Shown in pieces: positions 6,670 through 32,000 of a stretch of DNA of 32,000 nt; within the stretch, counting starts at the first letter, position 1, and each line of letters opens with the position of its first letter. Made by a program: the position numbers and the translations under genes. This stretch comes from Corynebacterium amycolatum (GTDB lineage Bacteria; Actinomycetota; Actinomycetes; Mycobacteriales; Mycobacteriaceae): NCBI RefSeq assembly GCF_049243625.1, contig NZ_CP046975.1. The stretch is one strand, 5' to 3'. The notes below the pieces were generated by a model. That model was not told where the DNA came from, ran no database searches, and saw only the letters and a list, made by a program, of their open reading frames with translations.

Positions 6670-6770
6670 GTAATAGACCTTAATCTGAATCCGAACACAG
6701 TAAAGACGAGGTGGGGTTTACCACCCCAGGAACCTCCGATAGCGCCACGATGTTGTTACCCTCGTGCCCG

Positions 6771-9211: not shown

Positions 9212-9213
9212 CT

Positions 9214-9894
9214 TTGCCCTCACTGACTTTTACTGACGCAGCCGTCGAACCGCTGTGGTCCGGTCTGAATTTGGATATCGAGCCCGGCGAGTTCTTGGCC
9301 ATCCTGGGTCCGAACGGCGTCGGCAAATCCACGCTGCTGACCACCGCCCTTGGCATGCGACGGCTGACTCACGGTTCAGTAAAAGTCGACGGAAACCTGG
9401 GCTACATTCCGCAGCAGCGGATGTTCGAGCCCTCGCTGCCCATTCGGGTTCGCGACCTCGTCGAGCTGGCGGCCGGCAAGAACCGCTCCGCCACCGACCA
9501 GATGCTGGAGTTTGTCGGCGCAACGGGTATTGCGGACCGTCGTGTCGGCACGCTCTCTGGCGGTCAGCAGCAGCTTGTCCGTCAGGCACAGGCGCTCGTT
9601 TCGGCGCCGGATTTTTTGCTTTGCGACGAGCCTCTGCTCTCCCTCGACCCTGCGGCACAACGAACCACGGTCAAGCGCCTGGACCGGCATCGCCGGGAAA
9701 ATGACACGGCAGTCGTCTTTGTCACCCACGACATCAACCCCATCCTGGGCGTCTGTGACCGGGTGCTCTACCTGACGCCGCATGGACATGCGGTCGGATC
9801 GGTCGAGGAAATTATCACCTCAGAGACGCTCTCGGAGCTCTACCAAACCAAAATTGTGGTTGCCCGTGTCGAGGGAAAGTTGGTTATCGCCTAA
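9214..9894 (+). CDS. Metal ABC transporter ATP-binding protein (ZnuC-like)
   Basis: Walker A GPNGVGKST, signature LSGGQQQ, Walker B FLLCDEP. TTG start 2 nt after the upstream stop. Confidence 0.9.
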   Translation: MPSLTFTDAAVEPLWSGLNLDIEPGEFLAILGPNGVGKSTLLTTALGMRRLTHGSVKVDGNLGYIPQQRMFEPSLPIRVRDLVELAAGKNRSATDQMLEFVGATGIADRRVGTLSGGQQQLVRQAQALVSAPDFLLCDEPLLSLDPAAQRTTVKRLDRHRRENDTAVVFVTHDINPILGVCDRVLYLTPHGHAVGSVEEIITSETLSELYQTKIVVARVEGKLVIA

Positions 9895-10766
9895 TGACCC
9901 TACTGGCTCAGTATTTCTCCGACACCGCCGCCCTACTCCAGGTCGGATTCGTCCACAATGCCCTCATTGCAGCAGCACTGCTTGGGCTAATTTCCGGCAT
10001 CATCTCGCCCCTGATTGTCATGCGGCAGATGAGCTTCACGGTCCACGGCACCAGTGAGCTGGCACTCATGGGCGCATCCGCGGCTCTATTACTGGGTGTC
10101 AGTGTCAGCAGCGGCGCCATTATCGGCTCGGTGCTCATCGCAATAGTCCTGGCAGCACTGTCGCTTCGAGGGCGCCAAGATGCGGTTGTGGGCGTGGTTT
10201 TGAGCTTCGGCATGGGCTTATCGGTGCTGTTTATCCACCTCTACCCTGGCCGGACAAGTACCGCGTTTTCACTTCTCACCGGCCAGATCATTGGTCTGAC
10301 TGACACTTCTCTATGGACGATGGCCATCGTCGCGGTCATCGTCGTCGGCGGCGTTGCCTGGAAATGGCGGCCGCTGCTATTCGCCTCCGCTGACCCCATC
10401 ATGGCCGCCGCCTGTGGTGTCAACGTCAAGGCGCTATCGATCTACTTCGCGATTCTCACCGGTCTCGTCGCCGCCCAGGGCGTGCAAATTGTCGGCTCCC
10501 TGCTCGTCATCGCCCTGATTATCACCCCGGGTGCCGCGGCCGCATTCGTCACTGCCTCGCCGGTGAAGGCCATCATCCTGTCGACCATCTTCGCCGAGGT
10601 CGCGGCTGTCGGCGGCATCGTCCTCTCGCTCGCACCGGGCATCCCGGTCAGCGTTCTAGTGACAACAATCGCGTTCGTCATCTACCTGACCTGCTACGCC
10701 ATCGGAACGGTGCAGTCGCGTAAGGCAACGCGTGACGACGTTCAGGCTGCCAAGTGGAGCAAATAG
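9894..10766 (+). CDS. Metal ABC transporter permease (ZnuB-like, ABC-3 family)
   Basis: TAATG stop/start overlap with the ATPase gene. Polytopic hydrophobic protein of typical ABC-3 length and composition. Confidence 0.9.
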   Translation: MTLLAQYFSDTAALLQVGFVHNALIAAALLGLISGIISPLIVMRQMSFTVHGTSELALMGASAALLLGVSVSSGAIIGSVLIAIVLAALSLRGRQDAVVGVVLSFGMGLSVLFIHLYPGRTSTAFSLLTGQIIGLTDTSLWTMAIVAVIVVGGVAWKWRPLLFASADPIMAAACGVNVKALSIYFAILTGLVAAQGVQIVGSLLVIALIITPGAAAAFVTASPVKAIILSTIFAEVAAVGGIVLSLAPGIPVSVLVTTIAFVIYLTCYAIGTVQSRKATRDDVQAAKWSK

Positions 10767-10810
10767 ACACATACGCTTTTCGGAGTGGCTTTTAAAACAA
10801 CAAAAACATC

Positions 10811-10889
10811 GGGCAGCTCCTCGAGTGACGATTGCGGAGAAGGTGCGTCCACCTCCCCTCTCGCCACCGAGGGGCTGCCCGTATTTTTA
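10811..10889 (+). terminator. Long compound hairpin followed by a T-run; probable terminator of the ABC operon
   Basis: gggcagc.cctcg (10811-) pairs with cgagg.gctgccc (-10880) and is followed by gtattttta. An inner ggtg/cacc helix is also possible. Confidence 0.4.
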
Positions 10890-11322
10890 CTGGATTCTCT
10901 AAAAGCAGACTCCAATACCCCCGCTCTTTTTAAGACTGCGAGGCTGCCGAAATGGGGTGACCCGGCAGACAGAAAAACTAACGCTGAGGATGTCGTGGTC
11001 TGACATCTCAGTGACCCAAAAGCTAGCTGTACAAGCCACCGCTAGGTCCGTGAGCATCCCTAAATTACGGCCAATTACGCCCCCATTTCTAGGAGCATGA
11101 TTTGCCCGCCCTCCCCTTCAGGAAACTACGGATAATTTTCTGTTGGAAGTGATAATAACGCCGTCATTTCTGCAGCGCACGCCGGAAATAGAATTATCTT
11201 TAAAGCGCTGAACTACTGGGGGTAGCCATAAGTACCGGCCGCCATTTAGAACGCAAAATACCCCACGTAAACGCCATTACTATGACGAATTGGTAATGGT
11301 GCCTACGGGGGTATCAAATGCG

Positions 11323-12267
11323 CTACTGGCTACTCTTTGCCCGGCGCTGGCGGGCAAACTCACTCAGAGTCACGCCGGCAGCAACGGAAGCGTTGAGCGA
11401 CTCAACCCAACCGGTCATCGGAATGGACATGATGGTGTCACAGGTATCGCGCACCAGGCGCGAAAGTCCCTTGCCCTCGGAGCCGACGACCACAACCACC
11501 GGGGTGGTGCCGTCGTAAGTGTCCAGAGTGTGATCGCCACCGGCATCCAGTCCAACGACCTGGTAACCAGCCTTCTGGAACTGCTTGAGCGAGCGCACCA
11601 TGTTGGTCGCCCGCGCAACCGGCAGACGCGCAGCAGTACCAGCAGAGGTACGCCAGGCGACGCCCGTAATGGCAGCCGAGCGACGCTCCGGAATCACCAC
11701 ACCGTGACCACCAAAGGCCGCCACCGAGCGAATGACCGCACCCAGGTTACGCGGATCAGTGATGTTATCCAGGCAGACGATAAGGCCCGGCTCACCGGTC
11801 TTGGCCACAGAATCAATCAGATCTTCGACAGATGCGTACTTGTACGGCGGAATCTGCAGGCCGATACCCTGGTGCATGGTGTTGCCGGTCATGGTGTCCA
11901 ACTCGTGGCGGGGTACCTCGCGAATCGGGATACCACGGGAGTTAGCAATACGCACTGACTCCTGCAGGCGCTCGTCATTGTCGGTACCCAGCGCCACAAT
12001 CAGCGCGGCCGCTGGCACCTTTGCATGCAGGCACTCCACGACCGGGTTACGGCCAACTACCAGCTCGGTGCCATCCCCCTTGCGCTCATGACGCCCCGAG
12101 TCACGGCGGCGCTTCTCTTTCGCCCGCTTATGAGCTGCGTGATAAACGCGGTCCTCTGCTTTCGGGGTCGGCCCCTTGCCACGCAAGCCACGCTTTTGGC
12201 CACCGGAGCCGCCAACGTTCTTCTTGCTTGCCTTGCGCACTGCACCACGACGACCGTTGCCTGCCAT
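11323..12267 (-). CDS. rlmB: 23S rRNA (guanosine-2'-O)-methyltransferase RlmB (SpoU/TrmH family) with a basic N-terminal extension
   Basis: [36 protein letters not shown] and [18 protein letters not shown] are SpoU motifs. RBS aacAGGAAGcag. It lies 57 bp downstream of cysS, as in M. tuberculosis cysS1-Rv3579c. Confidence 0.85.
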
Positions 12268-19439: not shown

Positions 19440-19501
19440 AGCCGAGGCAATGCTCCGGTAAAGACCAGATTCGAACAAGTGCGTTGCCTAGAATTAGACA
19501 C

Positions 19502-20764
19502 ATGAATGCCACGCCCCATCGACCTCAGCGCCAGCGCTGTCTCTTTGGGGCTAGTAAGCGCAGAATTGCGCTGAGCACAGTGCTTGGAGTTGCTCTTCTG
19601 GGCTCTAGCGTGGGAACGCTCGGTGGTTGCTCGGCGGTGGATGGTCTAGGAGCGACTGGCTTCGGTTCTTCGGATTCTGACTCTTCTACGGTGAAGCGAT
19701 TGCCTCCGGGGCAGGTAATTACGAAGACGCCATTTCCGGTCAATACGCCCGCACGCGCACAGCGGGTCGTGTTTTCCTCCACAGGTGCACGCGACCACCG
19801 CCAGACAGCCGTGTCCGGCACGATTTTGCAGCCCTACGCCCGATGGTCAGAGAAATCCCCGCGCCCACTGGCAGTAATTGCACCTGGAACTCTCGGCATG
19901 GCTGATAACTGTGCCAGTTCGGTCGCCCTGCGTTACGAAGCGCCTCCGACGCCTCCGGCACCTCAGCTGCTGGCACAGGGATGGAATGTTGCCATTGTGG
20001 ACTACCAGGGGCTCGGCACGCCTGGGGTACATCCGTATCTCAACCGTGAGATTGCCGGGAATAACACGCTCGATATGGCGCGAGCGGCTATTGAGACTTT
20101 ACAACTACCTGCAGATACTCCCATTGCGCTGTTCGGCTACTCACAGGGCGGAGGCGCCACCGCTGCAGCCGCCGAGCTAGCCGATGCGTACGCCTCGGAG
20201 CTGAACATCCGCGCTGTTTACGCCGGGGCTATTCCGGCCGATCTCACCGACACTGCACTGCATATTCGCGGCTCGGCGCTGGCGGGGCTCGTCGGTTACT
20301 TCATGAACGGCTTGATTGCAGAGTACCCAGAGACAAAAGAACCGATCGAGCGCATGCTGAGCCCGCTGGGGCAGGATTTCCTGAAGCTCACGGCCGATGA
20401 ATGCATTGGCGCCACTGTCGAACGTTGGCCCCGCAATGACACCAAGGCATTCACGGCCAACGACTTAGGAATAGCGGAAAATCTGCGCTCGCCGGAGCTC
20501 TCCCCCGTCGTTCGGCGCCACGTGGAAGAACAAGCTCTGGGGACAAAGACTCCCAGTATGCCCGTATTCGTTACCCATAACGCATTGGATGATGTGCTAC
20601 CCGTGACGTCGGCACGCGAACTTGTGCAGAAATGGCAAAAGGCCGGCTCCGACATCACCTACGTGGAGGTCGATACTGACCTCGGTGATGGGACGCACGG
20701 CCTTGCCTACGTGCTCACCCACGAAGAGATGCTTGCGTGGGTGAATCAGAAAATGGGGTACTAG
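19502..20764 (+). CDS. Secreted lipase-family lipoprotein (LIP / alpha-beta hydrolase)
   Basis: Signal peptide plus lipobox (GTLGGCSA) and nucleophile elbow GYSQGG. Length and pattern are consistent with the secretory lipase family. ATG 19502 is preferred over the track TTG 19484. Confidence 0.75.
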   Translation: MNATPHRPQRQRCLFGASKRRIALSTVLGVALLGSSVGTLGGCSAVDGLGATGFGSSDSDSSTVKRLPPGQVITKTPFPVNTPARAQRVVFSSTGARDHRQTAVSGTILQPYARWSEKSPRPLAVIAPGTLGMADNCASSVALRYEAPPTPPAPQLLAQGWNVAIVDYQGLGTPGVHPYLNREIAGNNTLDMARAAIETLQLPADTPIALFGYSQGGGATAAAAELADAYASELNIRAVYAGAIPADLTDTALHIRGSALAGLVGYFMNGLIAEYPETKEPIERMLSPLGQDFLKLTADECIGATVERWPRNDTKAFTANDLGIAENLRSPELSPVVRRHVEEQALGTKTPSMPVFVTHNALDDVLPVTSARELVQKWQKAGSDITYVEVDTDLGDGTHGLAYVLTHEEMLAWVNQKMGY

Positions 20765-20788
20765 CGGCGACAACCGCCGCTTTCCTCC
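20763..20788 (+). terminator. Hairpin overlapping the lipase stop codon, between convergent genes
   Basis: agcggcg-acaac-cgccgct followed by ttcctcc. Confidence 0.4.
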
Positions 20789-20803
20789 ATCTAGCAAGTA
20801 CAG

Positions 20804-20980
20804 CTACTTTTTCTTCCAGCGACCACGGAAGGTCAAGCCCTTGCCCAGTCGGACGGTGTAACCGCCACGGCTGTTAATGGTCACCGGACCGATACGCTTC
20901 GAACCAGAGACTCCCGAACCCGAGTAGTTCAGCCACGTGTCCTTGTCCAGGTTCTGCTTCTTGCGAAATTGGATCCCCAT
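20804..20980 (-). CDS. DUF4236-like small basic protein (58 aa); below the ORF-track length cut-off
   Basis: Hand translation gives MGIQFRKKQNLDKDTWLNYSGSGVSGSKRIGPVTINSRGGYTVRLGKGLTFRGRWKKK*. The pattern (MGf.FRK...l..lN.SksGvS.S.....v..n.r.G...t..l.G.Gltyr) matches my recollection of DUF4236. Confidence 0.6.
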   Translation of the reverse strand: MGIQFRKKQNLDKDTWLNYSGSGVSGSKRIGPVTINSRGGYTVRLGKGLTFRGRWKKK

Positions 20981-21240
20981 TTAGTTCTCTCCCTCGGAGT
21001 TATCAGATTCGGTCTCTGCCTCGGCAGTGGCCTGATCGACAGTAGCTTTGATGTCGCCAGATCCAAACGCTCAGGATACCGTCAGCACTGCCGAGAACGC
21101 CCGTCATCTTCCTCAGAATCGGCCAAGGCACCGCCCATCGGCATCAACGTTACCGACCTTGCCCCATATTGGTGAAGGTAACTTCGCCTTGCAGATGCCC
21201 CTTGAACTCGCCGTTCCTGCGCCATAGATGCCTCAATCCG
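20981..21240 (-). pseudogene. Decayed fragment of a clpC 3' end (relic of roughly the last 85 codons)
   Basis: Positions 21083-21212 align by eye to 23960-24087 of the live clpC. About four fifths of positions are identical, with 4 single-base indels. The longest exact runs are tcggcatcaacgtt, ctgccgagaacg and aacttcgccttg. The frame is broken by a TGA. The distal part still reads as an acidic tail, AFGSGDIKATVDQATAEAETESDNSEGEN*. Confidence 0.7.
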
Positions 21241-21314
21241 TTATTTGTGACCGATTCTAATGAGCTCATGAAACCGGCCGCTGCCACGGCATCCCGAACA
21301 ATGACGACAGCTAG

Positions 21315-22148
21315 TTAGTGCAGACCGTCTAAGGATGAGAATGGTTCCTCGGCCACGATGTCATGCAAGGGCACGCGAACCCAAGGTGAATCACTGTGTG
21401 CGAGCAACTCGGTGAGCCGTTGCGATTGGTCTTTCATCGCAGCGGCAACGTCGGGCTCACCATCACTCGCCCAGATCATTCGTCCCCACCAGAAGCTTGC
21501 GGCTACGTCAGCCCACGACACGAAGTAGCGCTGCAACGCCGCCACGGCCTTATCGGAAATCTGAAGGAACTCTTCTGGAGAGATCCATCCCAGCTCCGTT
21601 GCCGCACCACCAACGCTGTGAATTCGGATTATGTCCCATGCGCGAGTAGTGGCGGGCAATGCCGGGGCTGCTGCTTTGGCAAAGTTTTCGGAGCGCAACA
21701 TCCGTACGAGGTAGCGGAACTTATGTTCTGCACCACGCGGATCCACGCCTTGGACAACAAAGAAGTCTTTCAGAAACTCGATCCGCTCCTCCATCTCTGC
21801 CTCGAGCTCGTTCTCAGAGATGTCCTTCACTGCATATGCGAGCGGTAAAAGCAGGTCATTTTCCACATGCTGGTTGCCCTCAAGCAGGGCATCAATAACC
21901 TGATGCGCTTCCTGGGCACCGGTGACCCCCCAGTTTTGCTCGAGAGATGCTTTGTAGTACTTGACCGCCCTTGCGTTGATGTTCTCAACCCCTAGCGGGG
22001 TCGCAAACGCCTTATTGTGCTTGTACGTCATTCCCCACGAGTGGCGGCGCACTTCATCTTTGCTCGGCGCCGGTTCCGGCCACGGGAACTTGGCAAACCT
22101 GTAAAGCGAAGAATCATCAAACTTTGCTGGGGTGAATGTAGGGCTCAT
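21315..22148 (-). CDS. DUF1266 domain-containing protein
   Basis: RAWDIIRIHSVGGAATELGWISPEEFLQISDKAVAALQRYFVSWADVAASFWWGRMIW fits the DUF1266 signature (AWDl.R......g...GYi.e.E.w.......a...F.SW.e.....l.Gr.fW) as I remember it. Confidence 0.7.
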   Translation of the reverse strand: MSPTFTPAKFDDSSLYRFAKFPWPEPAPSKDEVRRHSWGMTYKHNKAFATPLGVENINARAVKYYKASLEQNWGVTGAQEAHQVIDALLEGNQHVENDLLLPLAYAVKDISENELEAEMEERIEFLKDFFVVQGVDPRGAEHKFRYLVRMLRSENFAKAAAPALPATTRAWDIIRIHSVGGAATELGWISPEEFLQISDKAVAALQRYFVSWADVAASFWWGRMIWASDGEPDVAAAMKDQSQRLTELLAHSDSPWVRVPLHDIVAEEPFSSLDGLH

Positions 22149-22278
22149 ATCCTCACAAAGTACCGAGGTTTCGGGGTTGAGTCAGTGTTACTTCACGCAC
22201 CACCCCACACCTGGGGTGAGTTATGTCATAGTACTGAACGTCAGGCGCGGTTTTTATTGTGTTGCTAGTCTCGTGTGC

Positions 22279-22839
22279 ATGACAGGATCCCAGATTGCAT
22301 TGACCGACCGGCCAGATCTCGGTGCCGCACTTGAACGTGCCGGTAATTCCGGGATTGTGCGCACTGCCGCCGTCGCTGTTGTAGAAGGTCTTGGTGTCGA
22401 CGAGATTGTGCTCGAGGCCGCCGCTACAAAAACCAGTGGAGTCGATGGCGCAGCGTTCGTCACCAACCGAAGAATTCTCGTGACCGCCAACAAGAAAGAT
22501 CCGTCTCAATTCGAGTTCCTTGAACTCGACAACCTCGCCAATGTAATCGTTCTGCCTTACAAGGGTGGCTGGGCCGTCGTGGCCCAGCTCTACAACACAT
22601 ATAAAGTGTGGAGCGGTTTCACAGAAAAAGCTGCGAAACGTGTGCAATTTGCTGCCCAGTGGGCCCTGACCGCAGGCCGAGAGGCACGAACGGAGGCCTC
22701 GCGTGCAGTGTCGTCGACGGAGCTTTTTGAGCGATGGAAAGAAAACAAGCACCGTCTCAATCGCAATAGTTTGGAAGAGCTTGCAGGGGCGATGCGCTCC
22801 CTGTATTCCGACATTGATTCACGGTGGTGGACTGAATAA
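22279..22839 (+). CDS. Hypothetical protein (186 aa), family not recognised
   Basis: Track ORF 22132..22839. The first in-frame ATG that does not overlap the divergent DUF1266 gene is 22279 (MTGSQIALTDRPDLG...). TAATG coupling to the next gene supports that it is coding. Confidence 0.55.
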   Translation: MTGSQIALTDRPDLGAALERAGNSGIVRTAAVAVVEGLGVDEIVLEAAATKTSGVDGAAFVTNRRILVTANKKDPSQFEFLELDNLANVIVLPYKGGWAVVAQLYNTYKVWSGFTEKAAKRVQFAAQWALTAGREARTEASRAVSSTELFERWKENKHRLNRNSLEELAGAMRSLYSDIDSRWWTE

Positions 22840-23684
22840 TGATTCGACTTGCATACCCGGGTTCGCCCGACCGCTTTAATGGGGCAGAAGACACATCACA
22901 CATCGAGCAAAACCTGGCTATTGCGGAAAATGGCTATCGCCATTACATCAAGCATGGCTCATTACTAGAAACTGGAGCATCTCCGGCAAATACGACTGCT
23001 ACCTCCAGGTCAAACTCCAGCGCGGGCACGACAGGTGCTCAGACCAGCGGCGCATCGAAAGGTCTCAGTGTAAAGAAGCAGCTATTACTCCTCCCCTTAG
23101 TGATAGCGGGCATCGTGGTGCTAGCGATTGCCTACGTTGCAGCTAAAGACGCGCTCTTTAGTGACAAGTCAGACGAGTCCGCTGCTCCCGCACAGTCCGC
23201 CGCTGAAGCACCTGCCAATCCCGGCGCTTCCAACGGTGGAGCTACCGGTGCCACTGGTGGGGATACCGCTGGCGGCCTCACCCCTGCCGACCACGCACCC
23301 GAACCGATTGCTAGTTTCGTGCGGGCCTGCACAGACTATGAAGTGGTGTTTAGCTACTATGGTGCGGATAGTGCCCCCGCCCCACAGGCAATGGGTACCA
23401 ACTGTTCCGTGGATACTACGAAGGCACCCGACGTTGGTTACGTAGTCTTCACCGATGACCCTGCCGCCACCGCCGCCGTTCGTGACGGCAAGCCCGTCTT
23501 GGATGCCGTTGAGATTCCGGCAGAATCAACGCGCGGTTCCACATTCAAGGCGCAGCGAGTGGAGTCCCTCATCACAGTTGCGGAAATCCTCCCAGAGGAC
23601 CAGGGAATCGTTGAGTACATGATCAAAAATGATGACCCTGAAGTAGCAAAGAAAGCATTGGTCGACCTCGGCGTGGCCAAGTAG
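22839..23684 (+). CDS. Single-pass membrane protein with a low-complexity linker and a C-terminal 2-Cys extracytoplasmic domain, unknown family
   Basis: The start overlaps the upstream stop (TAATG). TM helix LLLLPLVIAGIVVLAIAYVAA, then an Ala/Gly/Pro-rich linker, then a roughly 120-aa domain (FVRACTDYEVVF...GTNCSVD...). Confidence 0.6.
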   Translation: MIRLAYPGSPDRFNGAEDTSHIEQNLAIAENGYRHYIKHGSLLETGASPANTTATSRSNSSAGTTGAQTSGASKGLSVKKQLLLLPLVIAGIVVLAIAYVAAKDALFSDKSDESAAPAQSAAEAPANPGASNGGATGATGGDTAGGLTPADHAPEPIASFVRACTDYEVVFSYYGADSAPAPQAMGTNCSVDTTKAPDVGYVVFTDDPAATAAVRDGKPVLDAVEIPAESTRGSTFKAQRVESLITVAEILPEDQGIVEYMIKNDDPEVAKKALVDLGVAK

Positions 23685-23729
23685 AACTACAACTCTCCGC
23701 GCTTTTAGGAAAGACCGCATATAGACACA

Positions 23730-23779
23730 CTGCCGCCCCAGTTCCTCCTCCCATAATGGAGTCGGAACTGGGGCGGCAG
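23730..23779. terminator. Bidirectional terminator hairpin between convergent genes
   Basis: A perfect 16-bp stem ctgccgccccagttcc (23730-23745) / ggaactggggcggcag (23764-23779). It is flanked by moderately T-rich sequence on both strands. Confidence 0.55.
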
Positions 23780-23810
23780 TGTTCGTTGGTACTGCTAGCG
23801 GCTAAACCTC

Positions 23811-26546
23811 TTAGAGCGGCTGGCCAGCACCCGCACCAGCCGGTGGCGGGTTGTGGCCGTCGTCATCGGAGTCCGAACCGGACTCTAGGTCGGTTCCAGC
23901 GGCGGTGGAACCGCCGTCACCCGGTACATCCGGGGTGATGATATCGGACTCGCTGGTACCAGCGCTGCCGAGAACGTCCTTGTCTTCCTCAGACTCCCCC
24001 AGAGCACCGCCGTCGGCATCAACGTTCCCGGCCTTGCCCTTGTTGGTGAAGGTGAACTTCGCCTTGTCGACGTCCTTGGACTCGCCATCCCAGCCTTCGA
24101 CATCGATGAAGACGGTCTCGCCGAGACCAACCTCACCGTAGAGAATCTTCTCGGAGAGCTGATCCTCAATCTCGCGCTGGATGGTGCGACGCAGCGGACG
24201 GGCACCGAGCACCGGATCAAAGCCACGCTTGGCCAGCAGGTTCTTGGCGCGGTCGGAAATCTCCATGGTGATGCGCTTCTCACCGAGCTGGTCGCTGACG
24301 CGGGCCAGCATGAGGTCGACCATCTGAACAATCTCGGCCTGGCTCAGCTGCTTGAAGACCACAATCTCGTCGATACGGTTCAGGAACTCCGGACGGAAGT
24401 GCTTCTTCAGCTCGTCGTGGACCTTGTCCTTCATCCGCTCGTACTTGCCGTCTTCATCGGCCTCGCCGACGCCCGAGAAGCCCATACCAACAGCCTTGGA
24501 AATGTCGCTGGTACCCAGGTTCGAGGTGAAGATCAGAACCGTGTTCTTGAAGTCCACCACTCGCCCCTGAGAGTCAGTCAGACGACCGTCTTCCAGGACC
24601 TGCAGCAAGGTGTTGTAAATCTCCTTGTGGGCCTTCTCAATCTCGTCGAAAAGCACGACGGAGAACGGCTTACGGCGCACCTTCTCAGTGAGCTGGCCGC
24701 CCTCTTCGTAGCCGACGTATCCGGGAGGAGCACCGAAGAGGCGCGAAGCGGTGAAGCGGTCGTGGAACTCACCCATATCAATCTGAATGAGGGCGTCTTC
24801 CTCACCGAAGAGGAACTCCGCCAGGGCCTTCGACAGCTCGGTCTTACCAACACCGGACGGGCCGGCGAAGATAAACGAACCGGACGGACGCTTCGGGTCC
24901 TTCAGACCAGCGCGGGTACGACGAATAGCGCGGGAGACAGCACTGACGGCCTCTTCCTGACCGATAATGCGCTTGTGCAGCTCATCCTCCATGCGCAGCA
25001 GACGCGAGGACTCTTCCTCGGTGAGCTTGAACACCGGAATGCCAGTCCAGGAAGCCAGGACCTCCGCAATCTGCTCCTCACCAATCTCAGCGATGGTGTC
25101 GGACTCGCCCGCACGCCACTTCTTCTCGCGCTCGCGGCGCTCTTCGCCCAGCTTGCGCTCCTTGTCGCGCAGACCAGCTGCCTTCTCAAAGTCCTGCTCG
25201 TCGATGGCGGCTTCCTTCTGGCGGCGCACATCGGCGATCTTGGAGTCAATCTCCTGCAGGTCAGCCGGGGCAGTCATGCGCTTGATGCGCATGCGAGCAC
25301 CGGCCTCATCGATCAGGTCAACGGCCTTATCCGGCAGGAAGCGGTCGTTGATGTAGCGGTCGGAGAGCGTAGCTGCGGCAACCAGAGCCTTGTCCGAGAT
25401 GGATACGCGGTGGTGAGCCTCGTACTTATCGCGGACACCGCGCAGAATCTCGATAGTGAGATCCACACTCGGCTCCGGCACGTTCACCGGCTGGAAACGA
25501 CGCTCAAGAGCGGCGTCCTTCTCAATGTGCTTACGGTACTCATCCAAAGTGGTAGCACCGATGGTCTGCAGCTCACCGCGAGCCAGCTTCGGCTTCAGAA
25601 TCGAGGCTGCATCAATTGCGCCCTCGGCGGCACCGGCACCAACCAGCGTGTGAATCTCGTCAATAAACAGGATGATGTCACCGCGCTGGTTAATCTCCTT
25701 GAGCACCTTCTTCAGACGCTCCTCGAAGTCACCGCGGTAACGGGAACCCGCAACCAGCGAGCCCAGGTCGAGAGAGTAAAGCTGCTTATCCTTCAGCGTC
25801 TCCGGCACACGACCGTTGACAATGTCCAGTGCAAGCCCCTCCACGACGGCGGTCTTACCAACACCAGGCTCACCAATCAGCACAGGGTTGTTCTTGGTGC
25901 GACGAGAAAGAACCTGCATAATGCGCTCGATTTCTTTCTCGCGGCCAATAACCGGATCCAGCTTGCCCTCACGTGCAGCAACGGTCAGGTTACGACCGAA
26001 CTGATCAAGCACCAGCGAACCCGACTGGTGGTTACCCTCCTGCACACGAGCGCCGGAAGTAGCACCGACCGGACGCTGCTCCGGAGAACCATCGGACTCA
26101 TCGCCCTGGAAACCGCTGAGCAGCTGAATAACCTGCTGACGTACGCGCGGCAGGTCAGCGCCGAGCTTAACCAGGACCTGAGCAGCAACACCTTCGCCCT
26201 CACGAATCAGGCCGAGCAGCAGGTGCTCAGTACCGATGTACTTGTGACCCAGCTGCAGAGCCTCGCGCAGAGAGTACTCCAGCACCTTCTTTGCACGCGG
26301 GGTAAACGGCACGTGACCGCTCGGCGGCTGGGAGCCACGACCAATAATGTCGACTACCTCAGAGCGCACAGCATCCAGGGAAATACCCATGGACTCCAGC
26401 GCCTTGGCAGCTACACCGTCGCCTTCACTAATCAGGCCGAGCAGGATGTGCTCCGTGCCGATGTAATTGTGATTGAGCTCGCGTGCCTCATCCTGTGCCA
26501 GGACGACAACGCGACGTGCTCGGTCCGTAAACCTCTCGAACATCAC
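23811..26546 (-). CDS. clpC: ATP-dependent Clp protease ATP-binding subunit ClpC (ClpC1)
   Basis: N-terminal Clp repeats ([37 protein letters not shown]), two AAA+ modules (GEPGVGKT and GPSGVGKT) and a UVR-like middle region. It ends in a long acidic low-complexity tail. Confidence 0.95.
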
Positions 26547-26689
26547 TGCCCTTTCAAGTGTCTATTTTTGCCGTAATTCAATAAAGGTTGTTTCACCTAG
26601 CTTAAACGCGACGCGACACAGATTAATCCCTATAGCCGTACGCCAGTAGCGAACAGCCTGGTCGAGAGAGGTATCACTGCTCGTACGGC

Positions 26690-26722
26690 AGCAAAAGCTC
26701 CCGGCGGCAATGCCACCGGGAG
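26690..26722 (-). terminator. Intrinsic terminator downstream of the secreted-protein gene, upstream of the clpC promoter region
   Basis: ctcccgg (26698-26704) / ccgggag (26716-26722) with an inner ggc/gcc helix. On the minus strand it is followed by cttttgctg. Confidence 0.55.
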
Positions 26723-26797
26723 GAAACGAATGTTGGAATGAATTACTCCTGCGCGTTAAGCCAAACGCCAGACAAGAAGGAGTATTTGCACGGGATA

Positions 26798-27256
26798 TCA
26801 GTCAGTCTCCATAATCTCCCACTCATACGGAGTCACTTCACCGCGCACCTCGTGGTACGGAGAACTGAAGTACAGGGTGCCATTCTTATTCAGGACCACG
26901 ATCCCGTGGAAGCTGTACTTCTTCCCTTCCTTCAGTCGGAATGGCGGGCGCGAGGCATCCCAATTTCCACCGCTCATTCCGGCTTCCCAACTTCCAGATG
27001 CATCCTCGAGATCAAAGGTGACCAGATTGTGGGCGTTCTTCTTGTTACCCCACTTAGCTGTGGTCTGGCAGCGGAACATGTCCTGATTTACCGACCCACC
27101 ACAGACTACGGTTTCTCCGTCTGTGGAATAGCTGACATAGTCACGGTTGATCTTGGGGTAGTTCGTAGCTGCATCGGCGACGGACGGATTGACAACAGCA
27201 AGCGCAGTGGCGGCAGTGATTGCGGCGGCTACAGCGGAAATCTTCTTGGTGAACAT
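26798..27256 (-). CDS. Small secreted protein (152 aa), family not recognised
   Basis: Clear Sec signal peptide with an AxA site (AVVNPSVADA/ATNY). The roughly 120-aa mature domain has two Cys (VVCGGSVNQDMFRCQ). Confidence 0.7.
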   Translation of the reverse strand: MFTKKISAVAAAITAATALAVVNPSVADAATNYPKINRDYVSYSTDGETVVCGGSVNQDMFRCQTTAKWGNKKNAHNLVTFDLEDASGSWEAGMSGGNWDASRPPFRLKEGKKYSFHGIVVLNKNGTLYFSSPYHEVRGEVTPYEWEIMETD

Positions 27257-27292
27257 GATCTCAGATTAAAAACTCTCGGACACAAAAGAAAC

Positions 27293-27319
27293 GGGAGTTC
27301 TCCCCGGGGAGTTCTCCCC
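27293..27319. repeat. Tandem 13/14-bp repeat gggagttctcccc / ggggagttctcccc with internal dyad symmetry
   Basis: Read directly from the sequence. Each unit contains GGGAG-TT-CTCCC, and the junction is the perfect 10-bp palindrome tccccgggga. It lies 37-63 bp upstream of the secreted-protein start codon. Confidence 0.85.
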
Positions 27320-27487
27320 TAGCTAAACCATGCTGGACTGCCCAAATCTGGACAGTGGTGCCATCAAACGCACCACGATTTATCCGCTTATGTCACCGGC
27401 ACAATGCAGTCAGAGAGCGATGCTGTCCAAAGCAGCACGGTCAGAGCGCATGGCAGTCTGTGACGCACCGAGAATGGATTTATATCA

Positions 27488-27682
27488 ATGGCTTTCAAAC
27501 TATTCAGCTTCCGAAAGACCTTCCGCCCCACCCGCAACTCCCGGGTTACGCTATCGCGTTCTGGCCTCGGATATTCCTATCGCATGGGGCCCGTTCGGTG
27601 GACGAAGAATGCCCGTGGCGGCCGAACCACTACTGTGAACACGCCAATTAAAGGATTGACTTATCGCAAGTACCGTCGTTAA
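27488..27682 (+). CDS. DUF4236-like small basic protein (64 aa)
   Basis: MAFKLFSFRKTFRPTRNSRVTLSRSGLGYSYRMGPVRWTKNARGGRTTTVNTPIKGLTYRKYRR has the same pattern as the 20804-20980 ORF. Confidence 0.6.
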   Translation: MAFKLFSFRKTFRPTRNSRVTLSRSGLGYSYRMGPVRWTKNARGGRTTTVNTPIKGLTYRKYRR

Positions 27683-28479
27683 GCGAGCAGTTTCAAGTCG
27701 TCTGCAGTGACCAATCGTGCTTCGATTGCAGCGACAACTACCAGCTGCAGACGGCTCTTTTGATTAACCCGTTGCCGCTCCTTGCTTGAGACCAGCCCCT
27801 TGCTCAAAGCGGATTCAAAAAGTGCGGTGCGGTAATGCTCGACTGCCTTTGCGGTCTTGCCTCCCAGCTTTCGGCCGGCCTCGGCATCGGTGCATGAAAC
27901 CATAATGGTGTCGATTCGGCCGCGCAGATAATCCTCCGCATATGCAGCGATCAGAGCACGCTGGCGCTCCGGCAGCTCCCCAACCGAGATGGTTTCAGTC
28001 CCGTCAGTTGGCAGCACGACCTTCGCATCGGCGTGCTCAATATCCTGTTTAATCTGAATTTCGTACTGGTCATCCTTGACGGAAAAGCGGATGAAATACT
28101 CCGGGTAGCTCAAATCAAAACGCTGTTGCGGAGCCAGCCGGAATGACCGCGACACCTCCGGAATGTGCACCATTGCAGTCACGTGCTCGCAGTTATTGAG
28201 CAGAAACCACATTCCGGATTCCGCATACACATACATTGCTATGCGGTGCATGTAGCGGTTATCTTCGCCCACTTTGAGGTCGGCGTCACGCCCGATGGTC
28301 AATCCCTCACTCGGATTGGCAACAATCGCATCCCCACACAAATTATCAACCACAAGTGTTGGGAGCGATGTCACGTTGACCAGGCCTTTCTCTCGCACCA
28401 CCAGCCACCAACCGCGAATCAGGAACCCTACCCAACGCTCCTGGGGGAATCGCCCAACGACGGCTGAAGTGACTGGCAT
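27679..28479 (-). CDS. FHA-like domain protein with a C-terminal LuxR/sigma-70-region-4-like HTH (putative phospho-dependent regulator)
   Basis: GLTIGRDADLKVGEDNRYMHRIAMYVYAESGMWFLLNNCEHVTAMV resembles an FHA core. The GR and H residues and the NN/N motif are kept, but the pThr-contacting Ser is replaced. The C-terminus LPERQRALIAAY...SCTDAEAGRKLGGKTAKAVEHYRTALFES looks like a LuxR-type HTH. The fold assignment is unverified. Confidence 0.55.
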   Translation of the reverse strand: MPVTSAVVGRFPQERWVGFLIRGWWLVVREKGLVNVTSLPTLVVDNLCGDAIVANPSEGLTIGRDADLKVGEDNRYMHRIAMYVYAESGMWFLLNNCEHVTAMVHIPEVSRSFRLAPQQRFDLSYPEYFIRFSVKDDQYEIQIKQDIEHADAKVVLPTDGTETISVGELPERQRALIAAYAEDYLRGRIDTIMVSCTDAEAGRKLGGKTAKAVEHYRTALFESALSKGLVSSKERQRVNQKSRLQLVVVAAIEARLVTADDLKLLA

Positions 28480-28525
28480 TCATGATAGTTATCCGAAATA
28501 TAACAAATATTCTCGGCGTTATCGC

Positions 28526-30121
28526 TTAATTCGTCGTGGTTTGCATTGCCCACGCCGCCACCGTGTCATAGGCAGCAGGACAAGGATCGCCTTCACTCAA
28601 AACGACAAATACCGGACGAAGCACTTCGGGACTGGATGGCGCAGAACTTTCCGCCGGCTGAACCAAGCAGTAATTAATCGGCCGTGTTGCCTCGGAACCT
28701 TCGCTGTTCACAGCTTGAAATGAGCCTGACGTTTGTAGGACATCCAGCCGGCGACCATCGGGCTCCATTCGCAGTTTCACCACTTCAGAGCCAGCTGGTT
28801 CAGCCACTGACCGGTTCTTGCTCACGGCATCCAGAATTTCACCCCGCCATTTGTCATTTTCAGCCTCTGCAATCGGCTTCTTCTCATCAATACCGTGGCG
28901 AAATGGCAGCAAGAATTCATCTGCCGAAGCAAACTGCGTCGCGTGATATGCAGCACCGTTGAATGTTCCCATCCGCTGAATCCCCTGCCAGCTCTTCTCA
29001 CCGATGGGGACGTCGCTTAACGACGTAAGGGTCCATCGGTCACCCACCGGAATCCGAGGCCCCTTCGCCAAATCGGGAGCGCGAAGTCGCATCGGTTCCG
29101 CAGAACCTCCGATAGCTACTGGCTGTGCCAAGTGCTTGGCACTAAAGAGACCGCCATCTCCAATGCCGCTACGTTCGGCAACAACAATGCCACCACCAAT
29201 AAGGCCTAGACATGCCACTACGGAGAACGCTGCAAGGGCTTTCTTCCGGTTCTTCGGATTGCGAACCTCGACGGCACCACCATTTAGCGCAGCAATGAGA
29301 TCGCTAATAAACGCATTGCAGGATTCGTAGCGTTCATCGGCGTCAACCGCCAACGCCTTGGCGAAGACCGAATCAACTACCGCACCGAGGTTGGTAACCG
29401 GTCGCTTACCGCAGTGCAATTGCCGCGCACTGGCCGCGTCAGTAGCTGGAAATGCCTTATATCCCTGCAACAGCTCGAATATCGTGCACGCAAACGCATA
29501 CTCGTCACTAGCTGCACTAATGCAACCCTTAGTGAAGATCTCTGGCGCCATGTAGGGCAATGAGCCGGCAACACGATTGGTCACGCCAACACTGTCGATT
29601 TCAGTGGCGGTTGATACACCGAAATCCACAAGCGTCGCGCTTAACACAAGCCCCGACGAATCTCGCTCTACGACGATATTTGATGGTTTTACATCACCAT
29701 GAATCACCGCTGGTTCGTGCTTTGCTAGCCGATCTAGCGCGGTAGCAATCTCCACACCAATCGACATGACCTCGCTCTTATCGAAAGTGCGCGGCGGATA
29801 TTCGGCCAGTTCAGCGCCCAACGAATTACCGCTAATAAGAGTCATGGTGAACCAAAGCAGGTTCCCGGCTCGCCCGCCATCGAACACGGTCACAACGTTG
29901 GGAACGTGAACAGTGGCTGCGATAGAAACCTCGTTCTGGAACAGTGCCTCCATTCGCTTAGAAGCACTGGCCTCTTCCGGCAGTGGGACGATTTTCAGTG
30001 CTTCGTTTCGGCCCAGCTTGGGATTTCGTACTCGAAAAACAGTCCCCATATTGCCGGCACCGATGAGAGCTTCAACCTCGTAGCCCTCAAAAATATCGCC
30101 TACCTGGGGAAGATTAGTCAT
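28526..30121 (-). CDS. Transmembrane Hanks-type Ser/Thr protein kinase (non-RD) with an uncharacterised ectodomain
   Basis: GAGNMGTV (G-loop), EALKIV (VAIK Lys), HGDVKPSNIVV (catalytic loop with G in place of R), DFG and YMAPE. TM segment ALAAFSVVACLGLIGGGIVVA. The roughly 215-aa C-terminal region has no PASTA-like repeats that I can see. Confidence 0.88.
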   Translation of the reverse strand: MTNLPQVGDIFEGYEVEALIGAGNMGTVFRVRNPKLGRNEALKIVPLPEEASASKRMEALFQNEVSIAATVHVPNVVTVFDGGRAGNLLWFTMTLISGNSLGAELAEYPPRTFDKSEVMSIGVEIATALDRLAKHEPAVIHGDVKPSNIVVERDSSGLVLSATLVDFGVSTATEIDSVGVTNRVAGSLPYMAPEIFTKGCISAASDEYAFACTIFELLQGYKAFPATDAASARQLHCGKRPVTNLGAVVDSVFAKALAVDADERYESCNAFISDLIAALNGGAVEVRNPKNRKKALAAFSVVACLGLIGGGIVVAERSGIGDGGLFSAKHLAQPVAIGGSAEPMRLRAPDLAKGPRIPVGDRWTLTSLSDVPIGEKSWQGIQRMGTFNGAAYHATQFASADEFLLPFRHGIDEKKPIAEAENDKWRGEILDAVSKNRSVAEPAGSEVVKLRMEPDGRRLDVLQTSGSFQAVNSEGSEATRPINYCLVQPAESSAPSSPEVLRPVFVVLSEGDPCPAAYDTVAAWAMQTTTN

Positions 30122-30711
30122 CGGTTCCGTTGCCCAGACCCATCGAGATTACCCACCATAATCTGAATCCCAGACTCAGAGCGGCAATCATAATTAGGCG
30201 AAACTTCTTGGCATTCCATCGTCAGTGGCTGACCGTCATACTCAATCTCGATTGTCGTCTGCTTTGGCAGTGTTCCTTGCTCTTGCCGCTGTTTACTGAG
30301 CGCCCGCACTACCTCGTAATATGCTTCACAGTCCATATCGGAGCCCTGGTTTGACCAGGCACTCTGCAGCATCGGGCACGTCGGATCAACGGTCGACGCT
30401 AAGACCTCTGGGTCTACGAACCGATCGTCGGCAGGCGGTGCGATTGTAGTCGAGGTTGGTTCCTGATCATCGCCCACATAGTAGGACGGCGAGACTTCCA
30501 CTTCGGTGCTTTCAGTGGTTTCAAACAACCCGTCGGCGTTATCCTGCTGGTTAGAGCGGAAATTTAGGATCCAGACCACCATTGCCAGGATGACGACAAC
30601 CAGAATGGCGAGCACGAACAGCAGAATCTTCCGATTTCGACCATCAGTATCGGAATTTGCACCGCTGTCAATGTCATCGACGCCCGGGATTAGAGTGCGA
30701 TCGTCGGTCAT
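30118..30711 (-). CDS. Single-pass membrane protein with a 4-Cys extracytoplasmic domain, unknown family
   Basis: The start shares one nt with the Hsp70 stop (TGATG), and the stop overlaps the kinase start (ATGA). TM helix ILLFVLAILVVVILAMVVWIL. The ectodomain carries CPML...DCEAYY...MECQ...YDC. Confidence 0.65.
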   Translation of the reverse strand: MTDDRTLIPGVDDIDSGANSDTDGRNRKILLFVLAILVVVILAMVVWILNFRSNQQDNADGLFETTESTEVEVSPSYYVGDDQEPTSTTIAPPADDRFVDPEVLASTVDPTCPMLQSAWSNQGSDMDCEAYYEVVRALSKQRQEQGTLPKQTTIEIEYDGQPLTMECQEVSPNYDCRSESGIQIMVGNLDGSGQRNR

Positions 30712-32000
30712 CAGTTATCTCCTTGGCTGACAGAAACCTTCATCATCGTCGTGCGAGCAGCCGAAATCTCTTCCTCATTCATCACACCAATGCGCACGTG
30801 GGATTCGATTGAGCGACCCGATGGAACGTGAGTGCCTTCCACGGTAATCATGCCGTCTGCTGCTACAAAGAACTTAACCTGAATTGGCTGACCCTTGGGC
30901 AACGGCGGGATACCTGTCAGCATAGATTCCGATCCACTAATGATGTCATTGAGAGCGACATCTTCGGATGGAACGTCACTGGCCTGCTGATACAGCGTCA
31001 AATCTACTTCCTCTTGGCCATCAGCTACGGTCGAATACTCCCGGACCACCGGCTCAGACAGGGGAATCATGTCATTCTGGTTGACCAGATAGTCGATGTA
31101 CGGGTTGTTCAGATGATCGACAACTCGAATGCCAATCGACTTTGGCAATACATTTGCCACCTTCTTCTCCGACAGCGCGGCTAGCTGCCCGGCGTCAATC
31201 CCTGTCTCAGCCGCGATCTGCGCAATTGACTGCTGTTGGACAGCAGGGCTGGACTCAGCATTAACCACTCCCCCGAGCTTGCTGATCATCGCAGCAAGGG
31301 CAGCACCCTTAGCAACGGCTAGATCAGGCTCAACCAACAGTGGCTTCTTACCCGTCAGACGCTCCACCAGTTTGGTTACGGCGGTCATTCGCGAAGATCC
31401 ACCCACCAGGATGACCTCATCAATTGTCAGTCCCGGCTCCTTTTCCTTTGCCGTCTCCAATACACGGGTCAAAGGAATCTCCGTCTGCTCGAGCAATGGC
31501 GCCGTGACACGCTCCAAGTCTTCGCGGGTAACGGCAATCTTGGCGCGGGAACCAGAGTCACTGGCAAGTCGCACAGTGGCGCTTTCCGCATTACTCAGCG
31601 CCTCTTTACAGTTCACCGTCTGCTCATGCAACTTAGCGACGAAGGTCTCATCGTTTTCCGCCTCCTCGTCACCAGTCTGCTCAATGAATTTATCCAGGAT
31701 AAATTCACCAAGCGCCTTATCCCAGTCAGCACCGCCCAGTCGAGCATCACCGTCGGTGGCAATAACCCGGAAGGTGTTGTCAATCCCCTGCACAATCGTG
31801 GCATCGAATGTACCGCCTCCGAGGTCATACACCAGCAAGGTCTTGTCCTTTAGAGGCTGCTTGGAGTCGTAGTAGAGGGCCGCAGCAACCGGTTCTGCTA
31901 CCAGCTCCAACACATTGAAATTAGCAATCTGCCCTGCGTTGCGAGTTGCCTCGCGCTCCTTCGCACCAAAATATGCCGGCACAGTAATAACTGCCGAAAT
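30711..32000 (-). CDS. Hsp70-family ATPase (DnaK/HscC-like paralogue); 5' end outside the window
   Basis: The frame is open to position 32000 (ISAVITVPAYFGAKEREATRNAG), so the track's Met at 31982 is internal. Motifs are DLGGGTFD, RLGGADWD and ILVGGSSRM. There is an SBD-beta-like region (GIPPLPKGQPIQVKFFVAADGMITVEG). The protein ends about 40 aa later, so I see no helical lid. Confidence 0.88.
   Translation of the reverse strand: MSAVITVPAYFGAKEREATRNAGQIANFNVLELVAEPVAAALYYDSKQPLKDKTLLVYDLGGGTFDATIVQGIDNTFRVIATDGDARLGGADWDKALGEFILDKFIEQTGDEEAENDETFVAKLHEQTVNCKEALSNAESATVRLASDSGSRAKIAVTREDLERVTAPLLEQTEIPLTRVLETAKEKEPGLTIDEVILVGGSSRMTAVTKLVERLTGKKPLLVEPDLAVAKGAALAAMISKLGGVVNAESSPAVQQQSIAQIAAETGIDAGQLAALSEKKVANVLPKSIGIRVVDHLNNPYIDYLVNQNDMIPLSEPVVREYSTVADGQEEVDLTLYQQASDVPSEDVALNDIISGSESMLTGIPPLPKGQPIQVKFFVAADGMITVEGTHVPSGRSIESHVRIGVMNEEEISAARTTMMKVSVSQGDN

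Follow-up and report, generated by a model that had tools for sequence, protein, structure and literature searches.

A decayed clpC 3' end parted from its gene by a three-gene insert in Corynebacterium amycolatum: a probable C-terminal displacement scar

Corynebacterium amycolatum is a common commensal of human skin and the urogenital tract that can act as an opportunist, and the related unfoldase of mycobacteria, ClpC1, is essential and a drug target. Herein, we analyzed a 32-kb stretch of C. amycolatum DNA (32,000 nucleotides of contig NZ_CP046975.1, referred to as the window) that carries clpC on its minus strand. Downstream of clpC lie three genes, a fragment resembling the 3' end of clpC itself (the relic), and a DUF4236 mini-gene. 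Loci with the insert and the relic were termed occupied, and those in which clpC, TAAATG, and DUF4236 follow each other without interruption were termed empty. The features of the locus are as follows.

20804..20980, minus strand: DUF4236 mini-gene, 58 aa (Pfam PF14020, 25 bits against a family cut-off of 27)
20981..21220, minus strand: relic, the displaced native clpC 3' end (last ~79 codons and TAA), a pseudogene fragment
20981-21082, minus strand: part of the relic corresponding to the old native tail, from alignment to native ends
21083-21220, minus strand: part of the relic repeated in the live clpC, from BLASTN
21221..21314, minus strand: 94-nt spacer, right end of the insert, unmatched in L022, L091, and the empty-site strains
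21315..22148, minus strand: module gene 3, 277-aa DUF1266 protein (Pfam PF06889, E 2e-36)
22279..22839, plus strand: module gene 2, called as 186 aa in most genomes (235 aa if read from the mechanical ORF start at 22132), no family match
22839..23684, plus strand: module gene 1, 281 aa, partly of low complexity, one transmembrane helix predicted, no family match
23727..23782, no strand: hairpin with 25-nt arms, 92% complementary, and a 6-nt loop (repeat I1)
23811..23959, minus strand: replacement ClpC tail, last ~48 codons and stop, foreign to the amycolatum/xerosis clade
23951..23964, no strand: perfect 14-nt palindrome CGCTGGTACCAGCG, exactly on the native/foreign junction within clpC
23960..24094, minus strand: 135-bp clpC segment (codons ~W818-G862) repeated in the relic, the native, functional copy
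23811..26546, minus strand: live clpC, 911 aa, with native core and linker and foreign last 48 residues (Clp_N x2, AAA, AAA_lid_9, UVR, AAA_2, ClpB_D2-small)

Two Clp_N domains, two AAA modules, a UVR motif, and the D2-small domain identify the live gene product as a ClpC-type AAA+ unfoldase. Its domain set is as complete as those of other actinobacterial ClpC/ClpC1 proteins, unlike which it has had its last 48 residues exchanged. The clpC core shares 94% nucleotide identity with that of L011, a sister-species genome, and 96-100% with those of conspecific strains, and the clpC neighbourhood with mutY and radA is conserved.

A BLASTN comparison of 20900-21400 with 23700-26600 returned one match, on the same strand, between 21083-21220 and 23960-24094 (112/139 identical, 81%; 5 gap positions; E = 1e-27). 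A Smith-Waterman alignment was consistent with this match, and a repeat search recovered its ungapped pieces D3, D4, D6, and D10. The initial annotation had described the similarity in this orientation between 21083-21212 and 23960-24087 with four indels, which was correct and slightly short. The ClpC-like reading of the relic is scattered over all three frames, in the pieces WRRNGEFKG..EVTFTN, GNVDADG, GGALADSEEDDG, VLGSADGILSV, and ..DQATAEAETESDNSEGEN, the last ending at the stop. As originally read, the stop codon TAA (20983-20981) is followed at once by the ATG of the DUF4236 gene, giving TAAATG. The C-terminal reading ..ATAEAETESDNSEGEN, up to the stop, resembles the native tails ..AAEAE(T/P)ESDNSEGEN (in the fuller reading of empty-site ClpC, ..GAADQAAAEAE(T/P)ESDNSEGEN), and it was confirmed to be both shorter than and different from the tail of the live ClpC. 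The live clpC stop at 23811 is separated from the relic by 2,590 bases that contain three ORFs, in agreement with the earlier estimate of about 2.6 kb and three genes. In strains L007 and L008 the relic similarity begins 9 and 14 nt further 5', so that the 5' edge of the relic is imprecise by about 15 nt (about 21220-21235); similarity of the 94-nt spacer to a 5' continuation of the relic was not significant.

Sites without the insert were collected in two ways. L011 came from a scan with the ClpC C-terminus that took one genome per species, and the empty C. amycolatum strains were reached through look-ups of two other DUF4236 alleles. The clpC-TAAATG-DUF4236 junction was intact in nine C. amycolatum strains (L096-L099 and L101-L105), in L011, and in C. 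xerosis L019. In L011, clpC (895 aa, 94% nucleotide identity to the window) runs directly into TAAATG, DUF4236, the lipase gene, and mutY. Positions 5798-8511 of L011 correspond to window 26673-23960 and positions 8377-11559 to window 21220-18002; the 135 bp at 8377-8511 are aligned twice, once with each window copy, and 2,739 bp of the window (21221-23959) have no counterpart at this site of L011. Likewise, the alignment of L096 reaches window 23960 at its position 6899 and runs on from window 21220 at its position 6765, with 6765-6899 matching both window copies. The breakpoints of L096-L099 are the same as those of the window, their flanks are 93-97% identical, and their ClpC has 894 aa. 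In L101-L105, a ClpC of 892 aa adjoins DUF4236, and the clpC core is 96-99% identical to that of the window. Among occupied genomes, L002 (GCA_054653755.1) has proteins identical to those of the window in 10/10 genes compared, and exact copies of the window DUF4236 protein occur in many assemblies.

Because the native tails of the empty sites read as the relic would once have done, comparison of the sequences indicates that the relic is the displaced native clpC 3' end and that clpC-DUF4236 is the ancestral junction. This junction had been postulated in the initial annotation, together with an insertion near the clpC terminus that brought a replacement 3' end; the empty sites bear out both and set the size of the inserted DNA at about 2.7 kb. 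Related genomes were also checked for an intact frame conserved in the left copy, and none was conserved; uninterrupted junctions were found instead. DUF4236 formerly overlapped the clpC stop and was presumably translationally coupled to clpC; today its upstream neighbour on this strand is the DUF1266 gene, at a distance of 334 nt.

End-to-end alignment of the relic (237 nt, 79-81%) was obtained only with the native clpC ends of empty-site C. amycolatum and L011. The C. lactis clpC end gave 65%, and for other species the first ~50 nt alone could be aligned. With gaps left aside, the relic had 22-23 mismatches in 124 positions of the duplicated part and 10-11 in 49 positions of the old-tail part. 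As this divergence is equal in the two parts, and the old tail is necessarily native, both repeat copies are native-type in origin, and the 20% difference points to decay over time. Of the two explanations initially offered for this divergence, an old event therefore stands, whereas a heterologous incoming copy does not, the relic being native-type throughout.

The live copy at 23960-24094 is 100% identical to the empty-site strain L101 and 92-100% identical to other strains. Similarity to native clpC ends stops at 23960, and foreign coding begins from about 23955, which places the native-to-foreign switch ~32 codons before the native stop (about 23955-23960). The earlier proposal that DNA entered within the last 85 codons of clpC fits the length of the relic (~79 codons), but not the position of the switch, since 45 of these codons are duplicated. 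The palindrome at 23951-23964 is one of two perfect 14-nt palindromes in the 32-kb window, and lies within repeat I3.

The nearest sampled relatives of the new tail are in the C. tuberculostearicum complex, with which 40/43 aa are identical, as against 82% in the core and ~50% nucleotide identity in the adjacent linker. Many Corynebacterium species share its end motif, NPPPAGAG(AG)QP[L/M], which the amycolatum/xerosis clade lacks. That the tail is foreign, as had been suspected, is indicated by the relic, by the empty sites, and by the absence of this tail from the nearest relatives, and agrees with the end of similarity to native ends at 23960.

Four-fold degenerate sites differed from C. tuberculostearicum at 12/27 positions in the tail and at 181/370 in the core. 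Since the tail sites are as diverged as those of the core, the tail similarity reflects constraint at the protein level, and the tail family is under strong purifying selection. The same counts rule out a recent transfer of the tail from C. tuberculostearicum, a candidate raised by 90% nucleotide identity over 80 nt. Either the donor of the tail is unsampled or the transfer is old. Among the matches listed for the ClpC C-terminal 219 aa in the genome scan, no donor genome combined the tail with the same 110-nt flank and the module, and a protein search with the 48-aa tail gave one 56-aa fragment of the C. tuberculostearicum type only.

The 2,739-bp insert (21221-23959) consists of the new 48-residue tail, a terminator-like hairpin, a three-gene module, and the 94-nt spacer. 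The order in its left part is tail, TAAGAGGTTTAGCCGCTAGCAGTACC, hairpin, and 281-aa gene. The hairpin lies between the convergent clpC and 281-aa genes, within a 126-nt spacer unlike anything downstream of clpC in other species; it belongs to the insert and is probably a bidirectional terminator. The 281-aa gene is always found with the other two module genes. The gene of the DUF1266 protein shares the strand of clpC and DUF4236, and a search with this protein gave only 13 clusters of homologues. Searches of the insert proteins with Pfam, NCBIfam, PADLOC, and PHROGs identified DUF1266 only, and no recombinase, defence, phage, toxin, or immunity family. AlphaFold, given an alignment of 7 sequences, produced a model of the DUF1266 protein that was too poor to use (pLDDT 42.6), and nothing functional was found in the literature on DUF1266 or DUF4236.

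The module also occurs away from clpC. Window 21316-23700 matches 9777-12179 of L022 (Corynebacterium sp. HMSC036D02) with 83.7% nucleotide identity, as compared with 76% for the clpC genes of both genomes. Between the window and L022, four-fold divergence was 0.21-0.30 in the module, 0.50 in the clpC core, and 0.63 in MutY; the lower value for the module indicates that it has moved between lineages. In L022, the module is located between a 300-aa gene and a lipase gene, where the close relative C. hiratae (L020) has no module. In L091, a 52%-identical module sits at an unrelated locus beside Tox-REase-5 and GmrSD_C genes. Neither of these modules is accompanied by a clpC fragment.

On this evidence, we consider it very probable that C-terminal displacement in clpC left the scar seen at this locus and that no site-specific recombinase took part. 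The ancestral clpC (892-895 aa) had a short acidic tail and a stop overlapping the DUF4236 start in TAAATG. Foreign DNA of 2,739 bp became joined to clpC ~32 codons before the native stop, and the native end, which was not deleted and still adjoins DUF4236, was shunted downstream along with a repeat of the 135 bp that precede it. Having lost its start, this end decayed by about 20% substitutions and the five shared frameshifts, and the live gene now yields a 911-aa ClpC with a foreign tail. The original join was probably made by general or illegitimate recombination, and not by a site-specific recombinase.

Two routes could have led to this arrangement, and we regard them as about equally probable. 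A circle on which the 135-bp clpC end was followed by the new tail, then the module, and then the spacer may have entered by a single crossover, as proposed for rhs tips, and such an entry would account for the duplicated 135 bp. This route needs an amycolatum-type clpC end on the incoming DNA, so that an unsampled intermediate has to be assumed; the C. tuberculostearicum complex is ~50% identical in the repeated 135 bp. Alternatively, two microhomology joins may have been accompanied by duplication of a 135-bp target, although two illegitimate joins with such a duplication would be unusual.

C-terminal displacement has been described for rhs genes, in which a new tip arrives with its neighbours, the old tip moves downstream along with part of the core, and homologous recombination with a circular intermediate was proposed (Jackson et al. 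2009, PMC2935791). It has also been invoked for cdiA and for the effector-immunity arrays of the Vibrio cholerae T6SS, there through homology-facilitated illegitimate recombination (Kirchberger et al. 2017, PMC5361080). As in rhs and T6SS displacement, the conserved body of clpC has gained a lateral 3' tip together with downstream genes. The former tip is kept as in rhs, shunted with a core fragment and its old neighbour (here 135 bp of core/linker and the native tail), no dedicated recombinase is involved, and the block later spreads by homologous recombination. The incoming tip is likewise lateral and conserved in other lineages, in this case the C. tuberculostearicum complex.

However, clpC encodes a housekeeping AAA+ unfoldase rather than a polymorphic toxin, and in place of toxin domains its tips are short tails of acidic or proline-rich sequence; no toxin-immunity pair was recognized, and there is no evidence of an immunity role for the clpC-linked genes. 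Unlike rhs, clpC also shows one event and one relic instead of an array of dissociated tips, and its displaced fragment is decayed, whereas the rhs fragment is conserved. Homology-facilitated illegitimate recombination (described in PMC3240628, cited in PMC5361080) offers a further likeness, in that foreign DNA is joined beside a conserved anchor gene and a second tail allele, described below, is joined at a 15-nt patch. In its classical form, though, recipient DNA is replaced, whereas here 135 bp were duplicated. The clpC scar represents a known kind of event in an unusual gene, and is a clear, though fairly ordinary, evolutionary scar.

The initial annotation had compared the locus with integrative elements that target gene 3' ends, and the order of gene, new 3' end, cargo, direct repeat, and old 3' end does fit a remnant of an integrase island whose attP supplied the replacement end and which later lost its integrase and most of its length. 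Such islands, prophages, and ICEs also leave a replacement 3' end brought by the cargo, a repeat on the far side, and the old end as a fragment; the live clpC reads into a functional 48-residue tail and stop, and the GC content of the cargo is slightly below that of clpC (0.52-0.55 vs 0.58-0.63). However, no recombinase was found in the insert, in the window, or in the 17 occupied loci with gene calls listed; for the 32-kb window, this refers to Pfam scans of 20 of its ~30 larger ORFs, which agree with the absence of an integrase or recombinase stated at the outset. Moreover, the repeats are 81% identical with 5 gaps and contain no att-like identical core, and both copies are native-type. The cargo amounts to three genes without integrase or excisionase, and in the independent genomes L022 and L091 it occupies other sites without a fragment of the target. 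No other clpC relic was present among the loci checked. An integrase island is thus quite improbable as the origin of the locus; the earlier interpretation was right about the history and wrong about the mechanism.

The decay of the relic was examined across occupied genomes. The relic was present in 15/15 of them (the window, L001-L010, L094, and L106-L108). The five frameshifting indels are common to all occupied strains aligned, some of which have further private indels, and none of the 12 genomes translated keeps a reading frame across the relic. The relics are 94-100% identical among themselves and 79-81% identical to any native end; divergence is about 20% for the relic and 2-3% for the live copy. 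No clpC 3' relic was found in other loci (~80 checked of about 100 fetched), and none outside occupied C. amycolatum. The five common indels, the high mutual identity, and the lack of relics at other loci checked point to a single origin. With its disrupted frame, no conserved ORF, and an approximately neutral rate over the first ~190 nt, the relic behaves as a pseudogene fragment, and the sequences therefore describe it as a scar rather than a gene.

The retention of the relic in every occupied strain could instead mean that it is kept as a functional element, namely a small protein, an RNA, or a promoter or leader of DUF4236. In this regard, the last ~45 nt before TAAATG, which include a GGGAGAG ribosome-binding motif, do not differ from L011, against a background of ~20% (0.8^46 ~ 3e-5 by chance). 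This is consistent with conservation as a ribosome-binding or leader region of DUF4236, and could also be a recombination tract; L007 has three changes in this segment. However, a leader or ribosome-binding role is plausible for the last ~45 nt alone and is already contained in the displacement reading, while the first ~190 nt evolve almost neutrally, no frame is conserved, and indels are strain-specific. The RNA fold of the relic was no better than that of shuffles (z = -0.8), an Rfam scan gave sub-threshold chance matches only, and consensus promoter and terminator scans were at or below shuffle expectation. We therefore assign only a slight probability to a function of the relic as a whole. 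For annotation, the 334-nt "intergenic" region 5' of the DUF4236 gene is better described as a clpC pseudogene fragment, and is not suited to small-ORF or RNA mining.

The displacement is old. Relic and live copy differ at 19% of positions, apart from indels, and since few of these changes fall on the live copy, about 0.16-0.19 changes per site have accumulated on the lineage of the relic. Four-fold divergence of other C. amycolatum strains from the window was 0.03-0.16 in clpC, up to 0.29 in the lipase gene, and 0.03-0.16 in mutY; the values for L011 were 0.20, 0.38, and 0.27, respectively. The relic has thus decayed about as far as the deepest neutral divergence reaches within the species complex, and the insertion, which happened once, is about as old as the deepest splits of that complex.

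The occupied and empty states still segregate: strains of both kinds are intermixed in neighbour-joining trees, whether built from radA or from the clpC core; for example, the empty L096 groups with the window, and the empty L103 pairs with the occupied L007. Compared with L096, the window had 0-6 mismatches per 60 nt in clpC, 8-14 in the relic, 6-10 in DUF4236, 40 in the DUF4236-lipase spacer, and 0-2 in most of the lipase gene. The insert and relic thus lie in a sharply bounded old haplotype block (about 20765-23960), and the interleaving of strains indicates that it has been shuffled by homologous recombination through its flanks. Since the decay of the relic (0.16-0.19) exceeds the flank divergence between the window and some empty-site strains (0.03-0.07 for L101), the block is either an ancient polymorphism or an import from a diverged relative. 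The view that the occupied block is older than the species, drawn from DUF4236 alleles, was weakened by the empty L101-L105, whose alleles are close to the occupied type. In the index, occupied alleles accounted for 1093 + 85 blocks and empty alleles for 483 + 137, roughly two thirds being occupied; these blocks are not genomes.

That the occupied form is ancestral and the uninterrupted junction arose by deletion between the two 135-bp repeats is scarcely credible: such a deletion could take place between direct repeats of 135-222 bp, and occupied alleles are commoner in the index, but deletion would fuse clpC to the relic tail, whereas the empty-site tails are intact, in frame, and free of every relic lesion (the five indels and ~20% substitutions), the outgroups L011 and C. 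xerosis have an uninterrupted TAAATG, and the relic, as a duplicate, requires an earlier native end.

Four occupied strains (L001, L005, L006, and L010) carry a second tail allele, designated type B. Their ClpC has 905 aa and is native up to ..AAAEAE, after which 21 residues follow, and the repeat shared with the relic is 222 nt long. The type-B junction falls in a 15-nt patch with 12 matches, GTCGA[A/C]TCCGAT[A/G]AC, between the native GTCGAATCCGATAAC and the foreign ..GACTCCGATGAC. The GTC codon at this junction is that of native L101-class alleles and not of the foreign tail. Most simply, type B would have arisen later, when an occupied chromosome recombined with a native allele, and the window form would preserve the original junction. 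The reverse order, with type B first, was judged less likely, as an L101-class native allele explains the GTC codon.

We know of no described function for the C-terminal extension of corynebacterial ClpC, and a literature search likewise found nothing relevant. The tail is 93% conserved at the protein level between species with synonymous sites ~45-50% diverged. A bolder reading, which we put forward as unlikely, is that the C-terminal ~45 residues of ClpC are a selected, horizontally exchangeable functional module and not a disposable acidic tail. The two tail types may then exist because the tail works, or is co-selected, with the DUF1266 module that was transferred alongside it; the tail could, for instance, serve as a docking site or regulate the unfoldase. 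If so, the displacement would also have uncoupled the DUF4236 mini-gene from clpC translation.

At clpC, the C-terminus of an essential chaperone has been swapped by lateral transfer without inactivation of the gene, and the states before and after the swap are present in one recombining species. At least three natural ClpC tail variants exist, the native form of 892-895 aa, the foreign form of 910-911 aa, and the recombinant form of 905 aa, and they provide a natural experiment on the role of the tail.

The point at which native sequence gives way to the foreign tail in clpC coincides exactly with a perfect 14-nt palindrome, CGCTGGTACCAGCG (23951-23964), which is one of two perfect 14-nt palindromes in the 32-kb window. 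In L003 and L004, two further strains with the insert and the relic (the displaced 3' end of native clpC), a different inverted repeat was located at this position. The palindrome may have been left behind by the joining reaction, or it may lie there by chance. A third tail allele was found in four other such strains (L001, L005, L006, and L010), whose 905-aa ClpC ends in a native tail to which the final 21 residues of the foreign one are attached. The native-to-foreign join of this allele falls in a 15-nt microhomology patch, and in these strains clpC and the relic share a repeat of 222 nt.

The C-terminal peptide of ClpC, ending in (AG)QP[L/M]*, is kept by many Corynebacterium species (23811-23955 in the window; L012-L018, L020, L022, and L024-L028), whereas the native ClpC tails of the amycolatum/xerosis clade lack it. 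Between the C. tuberculostearicum complex and the window, 40 of 43 tail residues were identical, yet the 4-fold sites had diverged by ~45%. The peptide is a constrained C-terminal module whose function, to our knowledge, has not been described so far.

Within the inserted three-gene module, the DUF1266 and 186-aa genes (21315-22839) of the window and of L001, L005, and L008 were deeply diverged alleles of one species, with a 4-fold divergence of ~0.22, equal to that from the module of another species, Corynebacterium sp. HMSC036D02 (L022). Strains differed far less in the neighbouring 281-aa gene, at 0.02-0.09 for 4-fold sites, and in the relic, whose copies were 94-100% identical in nt. This unevenness suggests allele replacement or diversifying selection in the module interior. 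A distant copy of the module, with a 52% identical DUF1266, lies at an unrelated locus in L091 (1-11166) and adjoins Tox-REase-5 toxin-domain and GmrSD_C genes, neighbours which hint at spread of the module together with conflict- or defence-type islands.

The surrounding DNA was also variable. The secretory-lipase gene (19484-20764) was strongly mosaic across strains, with 87-100% nt identity and a 4-fold divergence of up to 0.29, and the 39-nt spacer (20765-20803) between it and the DUF4236 gene was completely different between the occupied haplotypes and the empty ones of the L096 type. Upstream of clpC, the window carries a variable island (26600-32000) with the following features:

27488-27682, + strand, second DUF4236 mini-gene, 64 aa (E 1e-12)
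28526-30148, Ser/Thr kinase gene
30711-32000, HSP70-like gene
also within the island, ORFs of 198, 266, and 152 aa

This DUF4236 gene scored better than the copy downstream of clpC. Three alternative contexts were found upstream of clpC among C. amycolatum strains:

context 1, the island of the window (DUF4236, HSP70-like, Ser/Thr kinase)
context 2, an AMP-binding enzyme gene
context 3, DsbD/thioredoxin, ECF sigma, and RskA genes

Thus, variable DNA is present on both flanks of clpC. Context 3 is shared by C. lactis and is probably the ancestral upstream arrangement. In C. lactis L100 (4324-6911), clpC was split into two gene calls of 185 and 696 aa, so that the gene is frameshifted or the assembly is in error here; its stop does not overlap DUF4236, which starts 90 nt past clpC.
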